Positions 4,817 through 53,189 of a DNA stretch of 63,939 nt are shown piece by piece (positions within the stretch are counted from its first letter, which is position 1; every line of letters starts with the position of its first letter). A program made the translations under genes and the position numbers. The DNA comes from Spirochaetia bacterium (GTDB lineage: Bacteria > Oederibacteriota > PGYV01 > Palsa-1178), in contig JAJFUW010000061.1 of NCBI GenBank assembly GCA_021372235.1, positions 1 through 63,939 of the forward strand, given 5' to 3'. Under the pieces are notes generated by a model that ran no database searches, was not told the DNA's origin, and was given only the letters and a program-made list of their open reading frames with translations.

Positions 4817-5829
4817 CAGACGAGTTTCTTTAAATCGGAAAAATGTCCCAGGATGAATTCCGGTTTAAGTTTTTTTATCATTTTTTTATCGGCATAACCG
4901 TATGTCAGAAATGCGCAGTCAACCCGCGCGTTTTTGGCGGTTAAAACGTCATACTGTGAATCCCCGACAAAAAGCGTTTCTTGCCTTGACGCCCTGTACC
5001 TCTTCATCAGGGTATATACCACCTCGGGGTGGGGCTTGCGCCTCACAACATCCTCGCTGCCGTAGGTCGAGGAAAAATATTTTGCTATGCCTATCCTGCT
5101 GTTTATGCCGTCAACATAGCGTTTGAGTTTGTTTGAGGCGACAGCCAGCACGATGCCCCTGCCTTTGAGTTCCTTTAGAGTCTCCCGCACCCCGGGGAAC
5201 ACCCTGAGCCCGGTTTTGTACAGCCTGTCGTAATAACGCCTGTATATCCCGATGAGTTTTTTCATGCCGATTTTTTCCAGTTGACACGGGAACAGGTCCT
5301 CTATGAAATTATCGAGCCCCGTGCCCACCGTATCCACAATATCATCCTTTCTAAAAGGCTTCATCCCGAACTCGCGCGCCATGGCATTCGCTGTCGTCCA
5401 GATACCCGTGGCGGAATCCACAAGTGTCCCGTCAAAATCAAATATCACGAGCTTGTACCTGTTTTCCGTTGTTATGGTGTCCGTATGTGAATATGGCGGC
5501 GCGCACGCGCAGAGTATTTTTACGGGTATCCTGCCGGTATTGGTCATCTTGTGCTCCGTGCCCGGCTTTATCAAAACCCCGTCGCCTTTTTTTACCGGGA
5601 CCTTTTTGCCGTTGAGTTCCATGAACCCGCCGCCCTGCGTGAAATAGTATATCTCCTCTGTTTCAGGGTGTATGTGCGCTATGGTGGAACGTCCGGGCAT
5701 AACCGTCGCCTCTGCCAGGGATATGTTGCCCATTTTGGCGTTTGTGGCGTCGAGGATGGACCGGATGATGGAGGAATCCTTGGTGATAAAAGGCCTGGCT
5801 TTGTTTAAGTTGTTTTTATAAATTCTCAT
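4816..5829 (-). CDS. Fusion protein: N-terminal cupin (type II mannose-6-P isomerase-like) + C-terminal HAD phosphatase (phosphoglycolate phosphatase-like)
   Basis: Cupin motif HIHPETEEIYYF...GTEHKMTNTG; HAD motif I VIFDFDGTLVDS and motif IV FVGDSQYD. Confidence 0.75.
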   Translation of the reverse strand: MRIYKNNLNKARPFITKDSSIIRSILDATNAKMGNISLAEATVMPGRSTIAHIHPETEEIYYFTQGGGFMELNGKKVPVKKGDGVLIKPGTEHKMTNTGRIPVKILCACAPPYSHTDTITTENRYKLVIFDFDGTLVDSATGIWTTANAMAREFGMKPFRKDDIVDTVGTGLDNFIEDLFPCQLEKIGMKKLIGIYRRYYDRLYKTGLRVFPGVRETLKELKGRGIVLAVASNKLKRYVDGINSRIGIAKYFSSTYGSEDVVRRKPHPEVVYTLMKRYRASRQETLFVGDSQYDVLTAKNARVDCAFLTYGYADKKMIKKLKPEFILGHFSDLKKLV

Positions 5830-5972
5830 TTGTTTTTTTCCTTTGTTGTTTTTGAGGAATTAAGCCAAAAGCCGGAAGCCGGGGTGAAAAAAAACGAGCA
5901 TACGATGGCGCGAGGTATTGCCGGTGCCTTCCTCAAACCCTCTCCTGCTCGTTTTACCACTCGCCTCCCGGC

Positions 5973-6803
5973 TCATGGCTCCCGGCTTGTTTCATTTCTC
6001 AAGGGTATCAGTCTCTTCTTCCTGCCCTCAAACACGGTTATCTCCCTCACCCCGAGTTCGTCCAGCAGCCTGTACCCCGCCTCTATTCCGAAAAATGAAT
6101 CTCCCGCCACATGCGCATCGGAGCCCAAAAACAGGTATTTTCCGCCCAGTTCAATATAGGCCTTTATGACATCGCTGCCCGGTATGACCTCTCGCGCATT
6201 GAAACGGAGTCCCGAGCAGTTCACCTCGAGGGCTATCTCCTTTTCTATCATGAGTTCCAGTATGGGCCCCAACTGGCCCCTGAAATTCTCATATGAAAAA
6301 CCGTCAAAGAACTTTTTGCCGTTTCTGTGCACCAGCGTTATGTGCGCCGCGGCGTCAAAATTGCCGTACTGCATGAGCTTATAAAGTTCCTCAAAATACT
6401 TCTGATAGGCGTCCTCCGGATTCTTATACCTGCTGAAATATTCGTCGTACACCGGGGACAGCCCGTCTATCCAGTGGGTTGAAGCCATTATAAAATCAAA
6501 TTCTTTTCCTTCCATCCATTTTTCATAGAGGTCCCTGTGCAGGTTCGGTTCGCCGACCTCGACGCCCTTTAAAAGTCCCGGAAATCTTCCTTTCATTTTT
6601 TTCCATTTTTCCGTGTACCTGCCGTAGTCGAGGTACATGAACGAATCGTGGTGGTTTTTGTGGAAATCAAGGTGTTCGGTGGTTGCGATGTTCCTGAACC
6701 TGTTTTCTATCGCCTTATCGACCAGTTCTTCCATGGTCTGTTCCGCATCCCATGAAAAATTCGTGTGGAGGTGGAAATCTGTGAGGTTGTAGCGCGCGTT
6801 CAT
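5973..6803 (-). CDS. PHP-domain histidinol-phosphatase-family hydrolase
   Basis: Starts at internal Met (MNARYNLTDFHLHTNFSWD...), the PHP HxH motif. The track's longer N-terminal extension runs into rnpB and a repeat block and is not credible. Confidence 0.8.
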   Translation of the reverse strand: MNARYNLTDFHLHTNFSWDAEQTMEELVDKAIENRFRNIATTEHLDFHKNHHDSFMYLDYGRYTEKWKKMKGRFPGLLKGVEVGEPNLHRDLYEKWMEGKEFDFIMASTHWIDGLSPVYDEYFSRYKNPEDAYQKYFEELYKLMQYGNFDAAAHITLVHRNGKKFFDGFSYENFRGQLGPILELMIEKEIALEVNCSGLRFNAREVIPGSDVIKAYIELGGKYLFLGSDAHVAGDSFFGIEAGYRLLDELGVREITVFEGRKKRLIPLRNETSREP

Positions 6804-7048: not shown

Positions 7049-7502
7049 GGGAGCGCGATTGTGCCGGTGCTATAAGCCGGATTCTGTATCCGCCTTTGCG
7101 CTTGCGCACTGTTGCGGATGGCGGCAATCAATCTAAGCAGCCTACCCTGGGCTTAAGAGGTGAAGCTCCTCCGCCACAAAATGCGTTGCCGCACCCTGTG
7201 ATCTTGCCCTCTATTTGGCCTTGCTCGCAATGGGGTTTGCCTTGCCGCGCCCGTTGCCGGACGTGCGGTGGTCTCTTACACCGCCGTTTCACCCTTACCG
7301 CGTAAACCGCTTGCGCGGTCACGAGGCGGTCTTTTCTCTGCTGCACTTTCCGTGACGCGGGGATGTGGCCCCGCGCCCCCCGGCTTGCGCCGGGCATCGC
7401 GCTTCAAAGAGTCCGGACTTTCCTCCGGGGTTACTTCGTGACCAGAGACTCTGATCGCGTGTACTCCTCGGTAGCCGTCCGCACCGGCACAATCGCGCTC
7501 CC
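7049..7502 (-). ncRNA. rnpB: RNase P RNA, bacterial type A
   Basis: The minus strand carries GGAGGAAAGUCCGGAC (7426..7411), GGUAAGGGUGAAA, GCAAGGCCAAAUAG, GGGUAGGCUGCUUAG and ACAGAAUCCGGCUUAUAG. A perfect 21-22-bp terminal P1 helix forms between 7481..7502 and 7049..7070. Confidence 0.93.
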
Positions 7503-36113: not shown

Positions 36114-36188
36114 GGTGGCGTAGCCAAGTGGTAAGGCACGGGTCTGCAAAACCCTTATTCATCGGTTCAATTCCGATCGCCACCTCCA
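36114..36188 (+). tRNA. tRNA-Cys (anticodon GCA), CCA encoded
   Basis: Cloverleaf folded by hand: acceptor GGTGGCG/CGCCACC, A13:A22-type D stem, anticodon loop CTGCAAA, T arm ATCGG-TTCAATT-CCGAT, discriminator U73. Confidence 0.93.
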
Positions 36189-49855: not shown

Positions 49856-50587
49856 TTATTCATCCAATTCAAAAAATATATCGTTCCTCGTCGCCTTTAA
49901 CGCCTCTTCAAACCTCTTCATCTCTTCCTCAGGCACCCTTAATATCTCCCGGGGGTTGTCAAGCGCGCGGATGTAGAACTTTCCGTACGCCTCCTCCCAG
50001 TTGACGTCAAATTCCGTTATCGTCGGTTTTGTCCTGTCGAACTGCCATGTTATGAGTTCCCACGGCATTTTATCCGTTTCAAATACCCTGACCTCGCGGC
50101 CCCGGTCCTTTTTGTCATAACTGTTGTACATGAGCGTCAGCTTCTTGTCTTTTTTCTTTACCCCGTCGTGCACCATCAGGAATACTTTCGGCAGTTCGTT
50201 TGTAAATACGTCGCGCACCGTCATGTATACCTTTGGCGTGTGGACATAGGTCAGGCCTATTTCGAAAAACCCCCTGAACTTTTTATCCCCTTTTACCACG
50301 TCCACGGATATTGTCTGCCTGTAGATATCTGCCGTATCCTCAACCTTTTTTTCCGGTATCTTTACCCTGTATGGGATTATTATCTCCTTGCCTTCGATGC
50401 CGTCGATATCCGCAAAAAGCACATACCCCTGCGCGTCGCCCGTGCCGGGGTCAAAGAACACGACGGGTATCTCGTCCCTGTCCGCCCATTTTTTGGCGGT
50501 ATCAAACTGGTTTCCTTTTATGAAACCGGCATGAAGGAATACTGGTATTATAAGGAAGGCTAACATTACCAAAAACGTTTTTTTCAT
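49856..50587 (-). CDS. Secreted hypothetical protein (243 aa)
   Basis: Signal peptide MKKTFLVMLAFLIIPVFLHAG. No recognisable domain. Confidence 0.7.
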   Translation of the reverse strand: MKKTFLVMLAFLIIPVFLHAGFIKGNQFDTAKKWADRDEIPVVFFDPGTGDAQGYVLFADIDGIEGKEIIIPYRVKIPEKKVEDTADIYRQTISVDVVKGDKKFRGFFEIGLTYVHTPKVYMTVRDVFTNELPKVFLMVHDGVKKKDKKLTLMYNSYDKKDRGREVRVFETDKMPWELITWQFDRTKPTITEFDVNWEEAYGKFYIRALDNPREILRVPEEEMKRFEEALKATRNDIFFELDE

Positions 50588-50631
50588 CTTTTTGTCCTTT
50601 CCCTTTTTGTTTCCCCTCTCTTACCGGTACA

Positions 50632-50660
50632 ATTATATATTAAAGCGCGGGAGTGTTCAA
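50632..50660 (-). promoter_or_regulatory. Sigma70-type promoter (TTGAAC-17 nt-TATAAT)
   Basis: Exact 17-nt spacing, about 45 nt upstream of the 50587 start. Confidence 0.5.
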
Positions 50661-50724
50661 TATGGTATTTGACGGGGAATACGGGTTGAAAGTTTACGTT
50701 ATTATACACATGTGCGCATTCTGC

Positions 50725-50800
50725 AGAGGCGGGACCGGGTACAAGCGAGCCATACAAAACACCCGCAGAAACCGGTCTGCGTGCAGTTTGCTGCGGACCC
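50725..50800. repeat. Family G-related degenerate copy within a GC-rich intergenic island
   Basis: AGAGGCGGGACCGG is identical to the start of copy 2. A second block, CACCCGCAGAAACCGG, compares with CACCCCTGAACCGG. Confidence 0.4.
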
Positions 50801-50993
50801 GCGGCGTGTATGAAACAAGAGTTCCGGAGCCCGGCCACGCAGGGTCTGCCCTGAGGGTATTATAGGGGTATGTACAGGAAATGGGCTCAATTACAATTAA
50901 TAATTAAATCATAAAATCCGCCCTTAAAGAAAGGAACAGCCATTTGCCGTCAGAAAGTTCTATCGTATTACAGCGAGTCCTGCCGTTACAAAC

Positions 50994-51044
50994 GCAACCC
51001 GGGACCGCTGTTTGGGTCCCGGGCCCAGCACCCTGTGACCGTTC
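50994..51044 (-). repeat. Family A stop-abutting repeat (contains the perfect hairpin CCCGGGACC-N8-GGTCCCGGG)
   Basis: Minus strand: TAA-GAACGGTCACAGGGTGCTGGGCCCGGGACCCAAACAGCGGTCCCGGGTTGCG. Confidence 0.7.
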
Positions 51045-52097
51045 TTATGCCCTTCCTTCCCTCGCGAACGCCTCCCAGAACGGGTCTATCCTCGGGTGCA
51101 CCAGTTCCCTCTCTTTACCGCCCTCCACGACAGTTATGCCGTATTTTTTATCCAGAACGTCGCCCACAATCGAGGCGTCTATGCCCTTTGCCTTTAACAC
51201 TGCTATGACCTTTTCCGCCCTGTTAGGCCTGCAGGTTATCAAAAGCGTGCCTTCGCTGATAGAAGTGTACGGATCAATGGAAAACTTTTCGCAGATTGCC
51301 CTGACCTCGGGCAGGAGTATTATCTTTTCCTGTTCTATCCTCATACCGACCCCGGAAGCCTGTGCCACTTCAAAAAGTCCGCCGTATACGCCGCACTCGG
51401 TCGCGTCGTGCATGGAGGTCACGCCCCTGTCGCGCACTCCGACCGTCACGGCGGTCAGAGCGTCTTCCACAACTGACATCTTATAAAATATCCCGCCCGC
51501 CCTCTGTGAAAAATCCTTCCCGAATATCTGTTCTATCTTTTTTTCATAGGCGGCCGCAAAAAGCCCCGTGGCCTCTATAGCCGCGCCTTTTGTGACTATT
51601 ATCCTGTCGCCCACGCGCGCGTCCTTTGGCGTAACATACTTGTTCTTGTCCCCTATGGCCATGACAGTGGCGCCGCCCACCATGGGATAACCGCAGCCGT
51701 CATACTTTCCCGTGTGGCCGCTGGTGATGTCTATGCCGAGTTTGTTGCACTCTTTTGCCATGGTGCCCCACATCATGTCCAGTTCCTCTTTTTTCATGGA
51801 CAGCGGCAGGTTTAAGTCTATACACATATAGGTGGGTTTCAGGCCCGATGTGACCACGTCCGATACCAGTATGTGTATCGCGAACCACGCCGCCTTTTCC
51901 CAGCCGTAGGCCGGGACTATGAACACCGGGTCCGTTGTCGTGGCCATGACCTTGCCATGCCCTAAATCCACGATGCCTGTGTCAACGCCGTGCTGCGGCC
52001 CCACGAGCACTTTTTTGTTCCCTTTTTTGAGCGAAGGGTAAATCAGTTCGTCAAAAATCTCGGGTGATACCTTTCCGTTTGCCGGTAACTCAGCCAT
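51045..52097 (-). CDS. AIR-synthase-related (PurM/HypE/ThiL superfamily) protein of unknown specificity
   Basis: Start at MAELPANGK (GGGAGG 7 nt upstream). GVDTGIVDLGHGKVMATTTDPVF and ITSGHTGKYDG resemble HypE/PurM N- and C-domain blocks. Lacks the ThiL GDD/GGD signatures and the HypE C-terminal Cys. Confidence 0.8.
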   Translation of the reverse strand: MAELPANGKVSPEIFDELIYPSLKKGNKKVLVGPQHGVDTGIVDLGHGKVMATTTDPVFIVPAYGWEKAAWFAIHILVSDVVTSGLKPTYMCIDLNLPLSMKKEELDMMWGTMAKECNKLGIDITSGHTGKYDGCGYPMVGGATVMAIGDKNKYVTPKDARVGDRIIVTKGAAIEATGLFAAAYEKKIEQIFGKDFSQRAGGIFYKMSVVEDALTAVTVGVRDRGVTSMHDATECGVYGGLFEVAQASGVGMRIEQEKIILLPEVRAICEKFSIDPYTSISEGTLLITCRPNRAEKVIAVLKAKGIDASIVGDVLDKKYGITVVEGGKERELVHPRIDPFWEAFAREGRA

Positions 52098-52161
52098 ACA
52101 AAAACCTCCCAACTTGAATTTGAAATCTTAAATTTTAACCGCATTCCTGCCGGCCTTAAAA

Positions 52162-52198
52162 CAAAAAAACCTCCGGCCGGGACCCGGTCGAAGGTTTT
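52162..52198 (-). terminator. Intrinsic terminator acting as TPP-riboswitch expression platform
   Basis: AACCTTCGACCGG-gtc-CCGGCCGGAGGTT followed by TTTTTTT, between the aptamer and the start codon. Confidence 0.7.
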
Positions 52199-52237
52199 TA
52201 TCGCAACTTCCAAATTTCAGTTTTCAAATTTAAGTTG

Positions 52238-52362
52238 CCTTACTTCCCTTCGCCGGCATTATCCGTATCAGGTTCGTCGGGTATAATCTCAGGCGGCCGT
52301 TCTAAACCGATCCGAAAATTGAGAATCGGAAATAGGTTAATTGGCCTACCACCCCGTGGTTC
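52238..52362 (-). promoter_or_regulatory. TPP (THI-box) riboswitch aptamer
   Basis: Minus strand: ACGGGGUG...(long P3 insert)...CCUGAGAUUAUACCCGACGAACCUGAUACGGAUAAUGCCGGCGAAGGGAAG. All conserved THI-element blocks are present. Confidence 0.9.
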
Positions 52363-52442
52363 TAAAACGTATTACGAGAAAAATATTATCATAGAGCCGA
52401 CTTGGAGTCAACATTTGCCACTTGATAAATTTCACCAATAAC

Positions 52443-52467: not shown

Positions 52468-53151
52468 TTATTCCGGTATCGGGTTATTATTCGCGTCGAC
52501 GTATTTCTTTTCCGACACAACCTGCCCCTTTTTATTGTATTTTTTTATGGAGAGCAGTATCCCATTATCATATATGTGCTCTTCCTTCAACACCTTACCG
52601 ATGTAATATTTCACGACGCCCTCTATTGTCTCGCCGTATTTTTTGAGTGTTCCGTCAGGATCTATCACCCAGCGGGCTATCTCCCTGCCGTTCTTGTAAA
52701 AAACCTCGGTGGTGCCGGTCATTATGGAAACTATCTCCGCGAATATCTTGTCCGAGAGGAGTTTGCCGTTTTCCGCGTAGGTCTTTAAGCGTATCATCTG
52801 GTCGTTCCCGAACTTCCCCTCTTTCCACACCGAACCCGAGGGATAATAAAGCTTGTAGGGACCGTGTTTTAAGGAGTTGTAATATGACTTCTCTACCATT
52901 ATCTGGCCGTTCTCATAATATTCCTTAACGTCCCCGTCAGGGACCTCACCATAAAGTTCGTAACGTTTCAGCACGCCGTCCTTGTTTATGACCTCAATGG
53001 CGTAAACTTCCATGCCGGATTTTGTCTTGACGGCCTTGTCATCGATATAAAACGAGAGCTTGTAGGTGGTGTTTCCCTCTTTGTCAGTTCCGAGAATGGA
53101 TGTTTTCTGGACCATTTCAGCCTTTAACTTTTTTTCCTCTTTTTCAGCCAT
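52468..53151 (-). CDS. MORN-repeat-variant (YwqK-like) protein
   Basis: Repeated Y-x-N-G-x-x-x-x-E-x-x-Y units (YYENGQIMVEKSYY, KTYAENGKL, VFYKNGREI). Start at MAEKEEKK with GGAGG SD. Confidence 0.8.
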   Translation of the reverse strand: MAEKEEKKLKAEMVQKTSILGTDKEGNTTYKLSFYIDDKAVKTKSGMEVYAIEVINKDGVLKRYELYGEVPDGDVKEYYENGQIMVEKSYYNSLKHGPYKLYYPSGSVWKEGKFGNDQMIRLKTYAENGKLLSDKIFAEIVSIMTGTTEVFYKNGREIARWVIDPDGTLKKYGETIEGVVKYYIGKVLKEEHIYDNGILLSIKKYNKKGQVVSEKKYVDANNNPIPE

Positions 53152-53189
53152 GTGGAGCCTCCTCTGTTTTCCATTGTTAATCCACATCC

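Follow-up and report, generated by a model that had tools for sequence, protein, structure and literature searches.

Thiamine biosynthesis is usually regarded as fully mapped, and the enzymes closest to the one described here act in it or share its fold. Formamide and thiocarbamate oxygens are the targets of PurM and HypE; HypE serves hydrogenase maturation by the ATP-dependent dehydration of S-carbamoyl cysteine, the cysteine of its PRxC motif carrying the carbamoyl/cyano group. ThiL transfers a phosphoryl group onto a phosphate monoester, a chemistry paralleled by that of hydroxymethylpyrimidine phosphate (HMP-P) kinase. In the archaeal fusion protein ThiDN the ThiD domain is the HMP/HMP-P kinase, and ThiN is an alternative thiamine-phosphate synthase. 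Genes of the pathway may be regulated by thiamine pyrophosphate (TPP) riboswitches, for which an OFF mechanism based on a terminator and an antiterminator is standard. The window analysed here is the whole 63,939-nucleotide (nt) stretch of contig JAJFUW010000061.1 (assembly GCA_021372235.1, a Spirochaetia bacterium of the GTDB lineage Oederibacteriota). Its minus strand carries a gene for a 350-amino-acid (aa) AIRS-like protein of the PurM superfamily (51045-52097), which belongs to an uncharacterised family and lies behind a TPP riboswitch aptamer, or THI element (52228-52366). As judged from sequence, this family is linked to thiamine by three independent kinds of evidence, namely riboswitches, operons and gene fusions.

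A TPP riboswitch had been called at this position in an earlier reading made from the letters alone (the sequence-only reading). In a local scan with the Rfam model RF00059 the aptamer spans the whole model (48.7 bits, E 2.2e-08), which is below the gathering score of 54.3 bits, and a scan of the whole window at the Rfam gathering level did not report the riboswitch. All of the aptamer blocks are kept in the model alignment (GGGGUG, CUGAGA, ACCC, GAACCUGAU, GGAUAAUGCC and GCGAAGGGA). The score falls short because of a 42-nt insert in P3 (52299-52340, minus strand) and a poorly paired P1. The insert was placed by alignment to relatives and folds as an extended P3 hairpin; it is absent from every aligned relative and is unique to this genome. 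The pairs of P1 are marked as non-canonical in the Rfam alignment, and the model built from orthologues has no P1. A sub-threshold score had been named in the sequence-only reading as grounds for abandoning the element, and this is literally what Rfam returned; an independent model nevertheless recovers it. For this custom covariance model, 13 TPP aptamers that pass the gathering score and precede orthologues in other genomes were used, with the window excluded; it finds the window aptamer with 55.2 bits (E 2e-14) as its sole credible match in 64 kb. The closest relatives, loci L001 and L004, are likewise below the Rfam threshold, yet score 66-69 bits with the clade model.

When 31 orthologous aptamers were aligned, 92.3% of cells paired canonically and 12 pairs showed compensatory changes, values that were reached by none of 500 shuffles; controls in which the partner was slid gave pairing of at most 60%. 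Helices P2, P3, P4 and P5 and the core blocks are supported by covariation across the orthologous aptamers. By these comparative criteria the leader is a genuine TPP-sensing riboswitch with an intrinsic terminator, and it is a slightly aberrant newcomer to an already known class. It shares with RF00059 the conserved core nucleotides, P2-P5, a platform of the terminator type and a thiamine-linked gene behind it, but differs in its score under the gathering level, its P3 insert and its weak P1, and the gene family that it regulates is not in the descriptions of TPP regulons that were consulted (PMC3766115, PMC11223231).

The remainder of the leader has the arrangement that the sequence-only reading had described, a terminator hairpin with seven uridines followed by the Shine-Dalgarno sequence and start codon of the 350-aa gene, as was borne out by the sequence and a minimum free energy (MFE) fold. 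A consensus scan predicts a sigma70-like promoter just 5' of the aptamer, where its placement fits (52383-52411, minus strand; −35 TTGACT, a 17-nt spacer and an extended −10 of the form TG-n-TAATAT). The intrinsic terminator (52163-52194, minus strand) consists of a GC-rich stem-loop at 52194-52170, which the scan also detects on the opposite strand, and U7 at 52169-52163; it begins 34 nt past the end of the aptamer. In the centroid structure the 3' segment of the aptamer, GCCGGCGAAGG (52247-52257, minus strand), pairs alternatively with the left arm of the terminator (52194-52184), and this segment is the proposed antiterminator strand. With TPP bound, the aptamer would keep its 3' strand (52257-52247), the terminator at 52194-52163 would form and transcription would end; with TPP absent, this strand would pair with the left arm of the terminator and the gene would be transcribed. 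We therefore infer, from termination in the bound state as opposed to antiterminator pairing in the free state of the modelled fold, that the riboswitch is an OFF switch.

Between the aptamer and the terminator the MFE fold places a perfect AT-rich hairpin, GCAACUU...AAGUUGC (52203-52238, minus strand), which could tune the folding kinetics of the expression platform. The suggestion that the leader had been invaded by AT-rich repeat words did not hold, as there are four matches in the window against about one expected, and what is present is this local hairpin (52238-52203) and not a dispersed repeat. The Shine-Dalgarno sequence, GGGAGG (52105-52110, minus strand), is 7 nt ahead of the ATG at 52097, and homologues begin with the same MAELP... 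N-terminus as the window protein.

The protein itself passes both Pfam domains of the superfamily, AIRS (49.2 bits, cutoff 24) and AIRS_C (81 bits, cutoff 23.1), and its tail lacks a cysteine, so that the earlier assignment to the PurM superfamily without the C-terminal cysteine of HypE is borne out. The classification with NCBIfam equivalog models that had been proposed gave no score of a bona fide ThiL or HypE and lay far under every cutoff: 100.9 bits of the required 251.6 for hypE (TIGR02124), 76.2 of 184.15 for thiL (TIGR01379) and 70.3 of 125 for selD (TIGR00476). The NCBIfam PurM models gave no match at E <= 1, and among PurM structures the best, PDB 2btu, matched with no more than E 3.5e-4. 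An AlphaFold2 model (predicted local distance difference test score, pLDDT, 91.3) was matched by Foldseek with probability 1.00 to HypE, ThiL, SelD and PurM, with template modelling (TM) scores of 0.76-0.79 for HypE, 0.70-0.80 for ThiL and about 0.65 for SelD, each at about 20% identity.

HypE is the nearest protein by profile (E 1e-21) and the best match by structure, and the likeness extends to the C-terminal domain, to the Glu of 'SISEGT', which aligns with the Glu of the HypE ANEGK motif, and to the position of the conserved tail. At the C-terminus an invariant 'HPRxDPFWxAF' can be aligned to the tail of HypE, yet the cysteine is missing, the window protein ending ...HPRIDPFWEAFAREGRA in place of PRxC. 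Moreover, the genes of this family sit in thiamine and NifS contexts, and neither the window nor any of more than 120 loci showed a hypCDF or hydrogenase neighbourhood. ThiL has the same fold and belongs to the same pathway, and both proteins would be ATP-dependent, but the AIRS-like protein coexists with genuine ThiL and is far more conserved than ThiL usually is. The likeness to SelD lies in the invariant N-terminal G-K-I-S-P, which aligns with C17-G-C-K20-I-S-P of E. coli SelD, in a GHT motif that resembles GHS of SelD, and in the genomic pairing with a NifS-like desulfurase, which recalls the delivery of selenium to SelD. In this loop the lysine is kept but the Cys/selenocysteine (Sec) is absent, and there are no selenium genes nearby. 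Judged from these comparisons, the protein is not HypE, ThiL, SelD or PurM, and represents a distinct, very conserved family of the PurM superfamily.

This family comprises 675 representatives at 50% identity (E <= 1e-30), and is spread over Zixibacteria, Ignavibacteria, Omnitrophica, Acidobacteria, Lentisphaerae, Patescibacteria, Micrarchaeota and others, with relatives 63-76% identical across phyla. C269, H128, H230 and H334 are invariant. C117, C135 and C235 are near-invariant, each being substituted in some members independently of the others, and a four-Cys metal or Fe-S site was rejected on this ground. Database labels for its members are 'AIR synthase family protein', a mistaken HypE, or even 'ThiDN'. 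As far as it could be searched, the literature on TPP regulons and thiamine salvage makes no mention of this AIRS-like family, nor does that on AIR synthase or on proteins resembling PurM or HypE in connection with thiamine or isc genes.

The genomic context of the family was determined from 107 related loci (about 980 kb of DNA), which are cited here by number. TPP aptamers are present in 34 of these, all upstream of the gene and on its strand, and there is no TPP match elsewhere in this DNA. Where 300 nt or more of upstream DNA was available (95 loci), 30 carry the aptamer; orthologues are thus recurrently THI-linked, a point that the sequence-only reading had proposed to check. Approximately 40% of the loci form one clade without riboswitches, and no other riboswitch class was found ahead of the gene in 21 riboswitch-less loci.

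Operons provide the second kind of evidence. The gene follows ThiC directly behind the riboswitch in L019 and L072 (TPP-ThiC-gene), and ThiC is also a partner in L111 and L117. The order TPP-gene-ThiE-ThiD is found in L066 and L093, and in L052 the riboswitch is followed by an ABC ATPase, a permease, a ThiY/NMT1-like protein, the gene, ThiE and ThiD, with a similar order in L063. In L102 the order is TPP-TenA-gene-TenA-ThiE-ThiL-ThiD, and L076 is similar. Six more loci have the bare pair of gene and ThiE. At least 11 loci have ThiE directly downstream of the AIRS-like gene. Seven loci of at least four lineages encode a canonical ThiD (Phos_pyr_kin, 314 bits) in the operon, and three lineages (L102; L076; L111/L113/L117) have a true ThiL in the operon or cluster of the AIRS-like gene, one of the loci with ThiL coming from a DPANN genome of 0.93 Mb. 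Against the TIGR01379 cutoff of 184.15 the neighbouring ThiL scores 276 bits in L102 and 194.6 bits in L111/L113, while those of L076 and L117 were recognised by our own ThiL hidden Markov model. As ThiL and ThiD thus occur together with the AIRS-like protein, it is no plain replacement for either. In a riboswitch-less sub-clade the divergent neighbour encodes a thiamine-binding protein of PF01910, a 97-aa member of the YkoF/MTH1187 family in L037 (7484-7777, minus strand) and also in L041, L043, L056 and L061; these loci also hold a class II-like ribonucleotide reductase and ArsR/LMWPc/permease genes. An open reading frame (ORF) of about 435 aa after ThiE was set aside as unrelated, since by eye its sequence resembles a fusion of a response regulator with LpxC, and annotation of the flanking ORFs of L118 and L119 against the PDB gave nothing useful.

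The third kind of evidence comes from fusions to ThiN, which were found as length outliers in an exhaustive search of the family. They occur in three lineages and in both domain orders, as AIRS-like-ThiN (P0125/P0271/P0272; P0186) and as ThiN-AIRS-like (P0142), and the archaeal ThiDN (ThiD-ThiN) model recognises their ThiN portion through its own ThiN half. The bacterial fusion of L115 is behind a TPP riboswitch. In L117, from the DPANN archaeon Ca. Norongarragalina, and in L111 and L113, ThiC and ThiL are transcribed divergently from the AIRS-like-ThiN gene. The AIRS-like domain therein has the same architectural slot as the ThiD domain of archaeal ThiDN, fused to ThiN and clustered with ThiC and ThiL, but ThiD is ribokinase-like and the AIRS-like domain has the PurM fold, and the bacterial copies co-occur with real ThiD. 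The NCBI names the fusion of L117 (10001-11572; GCA_902384935.1, Ca. Norongarragalina meridionalis) 'Bifunctional thiamine biosynthesis protein ThiDN', although its N-terminal two-thirds is AIRS-like and not ThiD, a misannotation that could hide a missing ThiD; P0271 is also named ThiDN. The paper describing the Norongarragalina genome treats thiamine only for other metagenome-assembled genomes. A supposed AIRS-like-ThiE fusion (P0278) has only about 80 ThiE residues and is weak evidence, and an apparent fusion of AIRS to a PfkB kinase (P0195) was discarded because its sequence is Arg-rich and frameshift-like.

Taken together, riboswitch linkage, adjacency to ThiE, fusion to ThiN and the partners ThiC, ThiD, ThiL and TenA place the family in the thiamine regulon and pathway. 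Because of the ThiN fusions and the module of gene and ThiE, the protein is probably an ATP-using enzyme of TPP synthesis at the ThiE/ThiN step, where it would supply one of the two substrates.

A second set of neighbours bears on which substrate this may be. In 18 loci a NifS, NifU or NIL gene is immediately upstream of the AIRS-like gene, with gaps of −34 to +28 nt, and in the riboswitch-less clade the gene is translationally coupled to NifS/NifU or to a NIL protein. Such coupling is seen in loci of Latescibacteria, Omnitrophica and Patescibacteria type. The surroundings in this clade include CysK/CysE, a threonine-synthase-like pyridoxal phosphate enzyme with a NIL protein, MnmA, FdhD and MOSC proteins, and also ThiS-family carriers, CoA-binding proteins, a BcrAD-type activase and NadA. 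In Patescibacteria the order is NifS-NifU-MnmA-CsoR-gene, and in Omnitrophica it is IscR-CysK-Nfu-COG1900-NIL/ferredoxin-PP-loop ATPase-NifS-gene-BirA-TonB receptor-BioY. Another lineage has the gene two genes downstream of lipoyl synthase (LipA), and BioB is also among the sulfur-cofactor neighbours. This association with NifS and sulfur cofactors points to the sulfur-containing thiazole half of thiamine, as far as gene order can indicate it.

Several details of these neighbourhoods were recorded in their own right. The long sulfur operon of Omnitrophica GCA_026387355.1 (L121, 1764-8991; also L127) is under a regulator of the Rrf2/IscR type and encodes a homocysteine system of COG1900 (HcyBio) and NIL-ferredoxin, a 268-aa PP-loop ATPase, NifS and BirA. 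In two loci the AIRS-like gene comes right after PdxS-PdxT; a PdxR/MocR-like regulator, PdxS and PdxT are directly upstream in L110 (3536-5058), L091 (916-2472) and L064 (4614-6215), which are of one lineage. Small ORFs of the ThiS/MoaD family that end in GG lie inside the NifS-NifU-gene clusters of L067 (6241-6447) and L074 (12148-12450); the ORF cutoff was 80 aa, at which further small ORFs of the ThiS type elsewhere would be missed. The idea, prompted by MetM/MetO, that the NIL neighbour is the thiocarboxylate carrier MetO was dropped, as the NIL proteins of these loci end in 'EG' and not 'GG', whereas MetO, according to its description, carries sulfur as a thiocarboxylate after activation by MoeZ.

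We tentatively suggest that the AIRS-like enzyme works on this sulfur-containing thiazole side, a possibility that the gene contexts leave short of even likelihood. ThiC, ThiD, ThiE/ThiN, ThiL and TenA all co-occur with the gene, and there is no ThiM, ThiG, ThiF, ThiH or Thi4 among the annotated neighbours, of which singletons were not exhaustively annotated. With the other steps co-occurring and no thiazole gene next to the AIRS-like gene, thiazole supply alone would be complementary to it. By analogy with PurM and HypE, ATP would phosphorylate a carbonyl or formyl oxygen, or would serve as phosphoryl donor; a thiazole-phosphate moiety would be made or activated using, or depending on, sulfur from the cysteine desulfurase NifS/IscS, and this product would pass to ThiE or ThiN. 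Identities of 60-75% across phyla are also more typical of enzymes with complex chemistry than of simple kinases. Among the putative active-site features, the SelD-like loop and GHT motif, the Glu and tail aligned to those of HypE, and the invariant Cys269 are counted in favour as well. A thiazole-side function accounts for more of the evidence as a whole, as it covers the missing thiazole supply, the sulfur link and the conservation. The fuller proposal, that this is a third route to thiazole besides ThiG/ThiS and Thi4, ATP-dependent and coupled to a cysteine desulfurase, with the product handed to ThiE/ThiN, is unlikely as it stands.

A number of observations weigh against placing the enzyme on the thiazole side. 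The assignment rests partly on absence and complementarity, the only thiazole-type genes near the gene being the ThiS-family small ORFs of L067 and L074, and we know of no enzyme of the PurM superfamily that phosphorylates an alcohol or builds a thiazole. The sulfur neighbourhoods could be conserved housekeeping gene order with no functional link, and the ThiN fusion in L114 is itself then followed by MnmA. As C117, C135 and C235 are replaceable, a persulfide or cluster site is not established. Finally, the archaeal cluster of ThiC-ThiL and AIRS-like-ThiN without ThiD reads more naturally as that of an HMP-P kinase, and so do the TPP-ThiC-gene operons.

The protein would in that case be a non-orthologous HMP-P kinase, with the second of the ThiD activities, which converts HMP-P to HMP-PP and passes it to ThiE/ThiN, and this is an alternative that we consider somewhat unlikely but near-equal to a function in thiazole supply. 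In fusions that resemble ThiDN the AIRS-like domain holds the place of ThiD, and the DPANN cluster (L111/L113/L117) has all of the pyrimidine steps from aminoimidazole ribonucleotide (AIR) to TPP but the HMP-P kinase. The operons of L019 and L072, in which the riboswitch and ThiC precede the gene, agree with this, as do the neighbours TenA (pyrimidine salvage), the ThiY-like ABC transporter and the PF01910 protein. The fold is equally near to ThiL and HypE (TM about 0.8), and in ThiL there is the better chemical precedent. Such a kinase would, however, be redundant with the canonical ThiD of the same operon in the seven loci noted above, and it leaves unexplained the NifS/NifU and sulfur-cofactor neighbourhoods, the unusually high conservation and the constant non-adjacency of thiazole genes. 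Between the two, the thiazole side is slightly favoured. Of the kinase roles put forward in the sequence-only reading, the HMP-P type therefore stays live despite ThiD in these seven loci, whereas a thiamine monophosphate (ThMP) kinase is disfavoured by ThiL in three lineages.

The sulfur genes could also mean that the protein is a general enzyme of sulfur trafficking or activation, similar to SelD or HypE and fed by NifS/IscS, with thiamine as one client among several cofactors. The 18 loci with NifS, NifU or NIL directly upstream would be expected from this, as would the variety of neighbours (MnmA, FdhD, MOSC, ThiS-family, COG1900, NIL-ferredoxin, LipA, BirA/BioY, BioB and NadA) and the SelD-like N-terminal loop with its Lys. 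We regard it as doubtful, since the fusion to ThiN and the tight module of gene and ThiE are hard to explain when, to our knowledge, ThMP synthases use no sulfur donor; the Cys/Sec of SelD is absent, the conserved cysteines are not strictly invariant, and about one third of the loci have a TPP riboswitch.

A role in the salvage or repair of damaged thiamine appears improbable, although the sequence-only reading had listed a salvage enzyme. It would consist of the ATP-dependent re-closure of the ring-opened N-formyl thiol form, or of the activation of an oxo or carboxyl derivative before reduction. Re-closure would be a cyclodehydration like that of PurM, in keeping with the chemistry of PurM and HypE on formamide and thiocarbamate oxygens; the operons with TenA, a ThiY-like transporter and TonB receptors, and the PF01910 thiamine-binding neighbour, are also in its favour. 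The Hanson group has argued that unknown TPP-linked genes are likely to serve salvage or detoxification, and has listed orphan damage products (PMC11223231), which lends this role further weight. On the other hand, the ThiN fusion and the de novo contexts with ThiC suggest a mainstream step, the sulfur operons are left unexplained, and the link to a damaged substrate is purely conjectural.

A divergent ThiL, an isofunctional ThMP kinase that would convert ThMP to TPP right after ThiE/ThiN, is less probable again: it would belong to the same superfamily with a similar fold, and its fusion or adjacency to the ThMP synthase would join consecutive steps, but a true ThiL is already present in the same operon or cluster in L102, L111/L113, L076 and L117, and the thiL model gives only 76 bits against 184. 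The weakest candidate, a dedicated AIR supplier in the form of a PurM isozyme feeding ThiC, as the sequence-only reading had proposed and as membership of the PurM superfamily and the adjacency of ThiC in some loci might suggest, is scarcely credible, since the PurM models found no match at E <= 1 and the best PurM structure only reached E 3.5e-4, most of the thiamine-linked loci are without ThiC and the gene occurs in salvage operons that lack it, the fusions join ThiN, which is unrelated to AIR, and not ThiC, and a lone last step gives no AIR without the remaining purine pathway.

Within the window's own clade (L001, L003, L004 and L005) the riboswitch controls an operon in which the gene is followed by a TonB-dependent receptor and then, in every case, by a secreted protein of about 245 aa, here called p247. 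In the window p247 is a 243-aa protein (49856-50587, minus strand) with 44% identity by tblastn (E 1e-63) to the product of L001 6907-7665; its N-terminus resembles a signal peptide, neither Pfam nor NCBIfam gave a match, and the protein may be an outer-membrane or periplasmic partner for the uptake of thiamine or a precursor. Where relatives have the receptor of about 585 aa, the window has a 458-nt gap with a hairpin (50588-51044) in which tblastn found no receptor remnant. The receptor is thus either cleanly lost from the window or was never inserted there, and p247 and the flanking synteny are retained despite its absence. In L021 a BanI-type restriction endonuclease gene (5192-6205) separates the AIRS-like gene from two downstream ORFs, of 607 aa and 246 aa; these resemble the receptor and p247 by size only, and the endonuclease gene has the look of a mobile insertion into the operon.

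Immediately upstream of the riboswitch the window encodes a MORN-repeat protein (52468-53187, minus strand), which is syntenic in L001, L004, L031 and L029 and is a useful lineage marker (Goldiibacteriota/FCPU426-like). Elsewhere in the window there is an RNase P RNA of class A (7057-7490, minus strand; 181.5 bits) that departs from the consensus by several sizeable insertions, and a tRNA gene (36114-36185, plus strand; 66.5 bits) in which the anticodon loop CUGCAAA suggests tRNA-Cys(GCA).

What these results mean for the family is that a large group of proteins carries three independent marks of thiamine metabolism (riboswitch, operon and fusion) yet has no assigned function. Because its members are labelled 'AIR synthase', 'HypE' or even 'ThiDN', both hydrogenase maturation and vitamin B1 capacity are scored wrongly when the metabolism of uncultured anaerobes is reconstructed. 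Based on comparative genomics, the family is a well-supported candidate for an unrecognised step of thiamine synthesis in uncultured anaerobes, bacteria of the candidate phyla radiation (CPR) and DPANN archaea. On the thiazole side of the pathway, the source of the sulfur in most bacteria and the step after Thi4 in archaea have yet to be settled. If there is indeed a third thiazole route, it would be one used by many anaerobic and candidate-phyla bacteria and by some DPANN archaea. The family offers a concrete and cheap experimental entry point, and its reaction, once identified, would be either a non-orthologous replacement of the HMP-P kinase or a new sulfur-linked step on the thiazole side.

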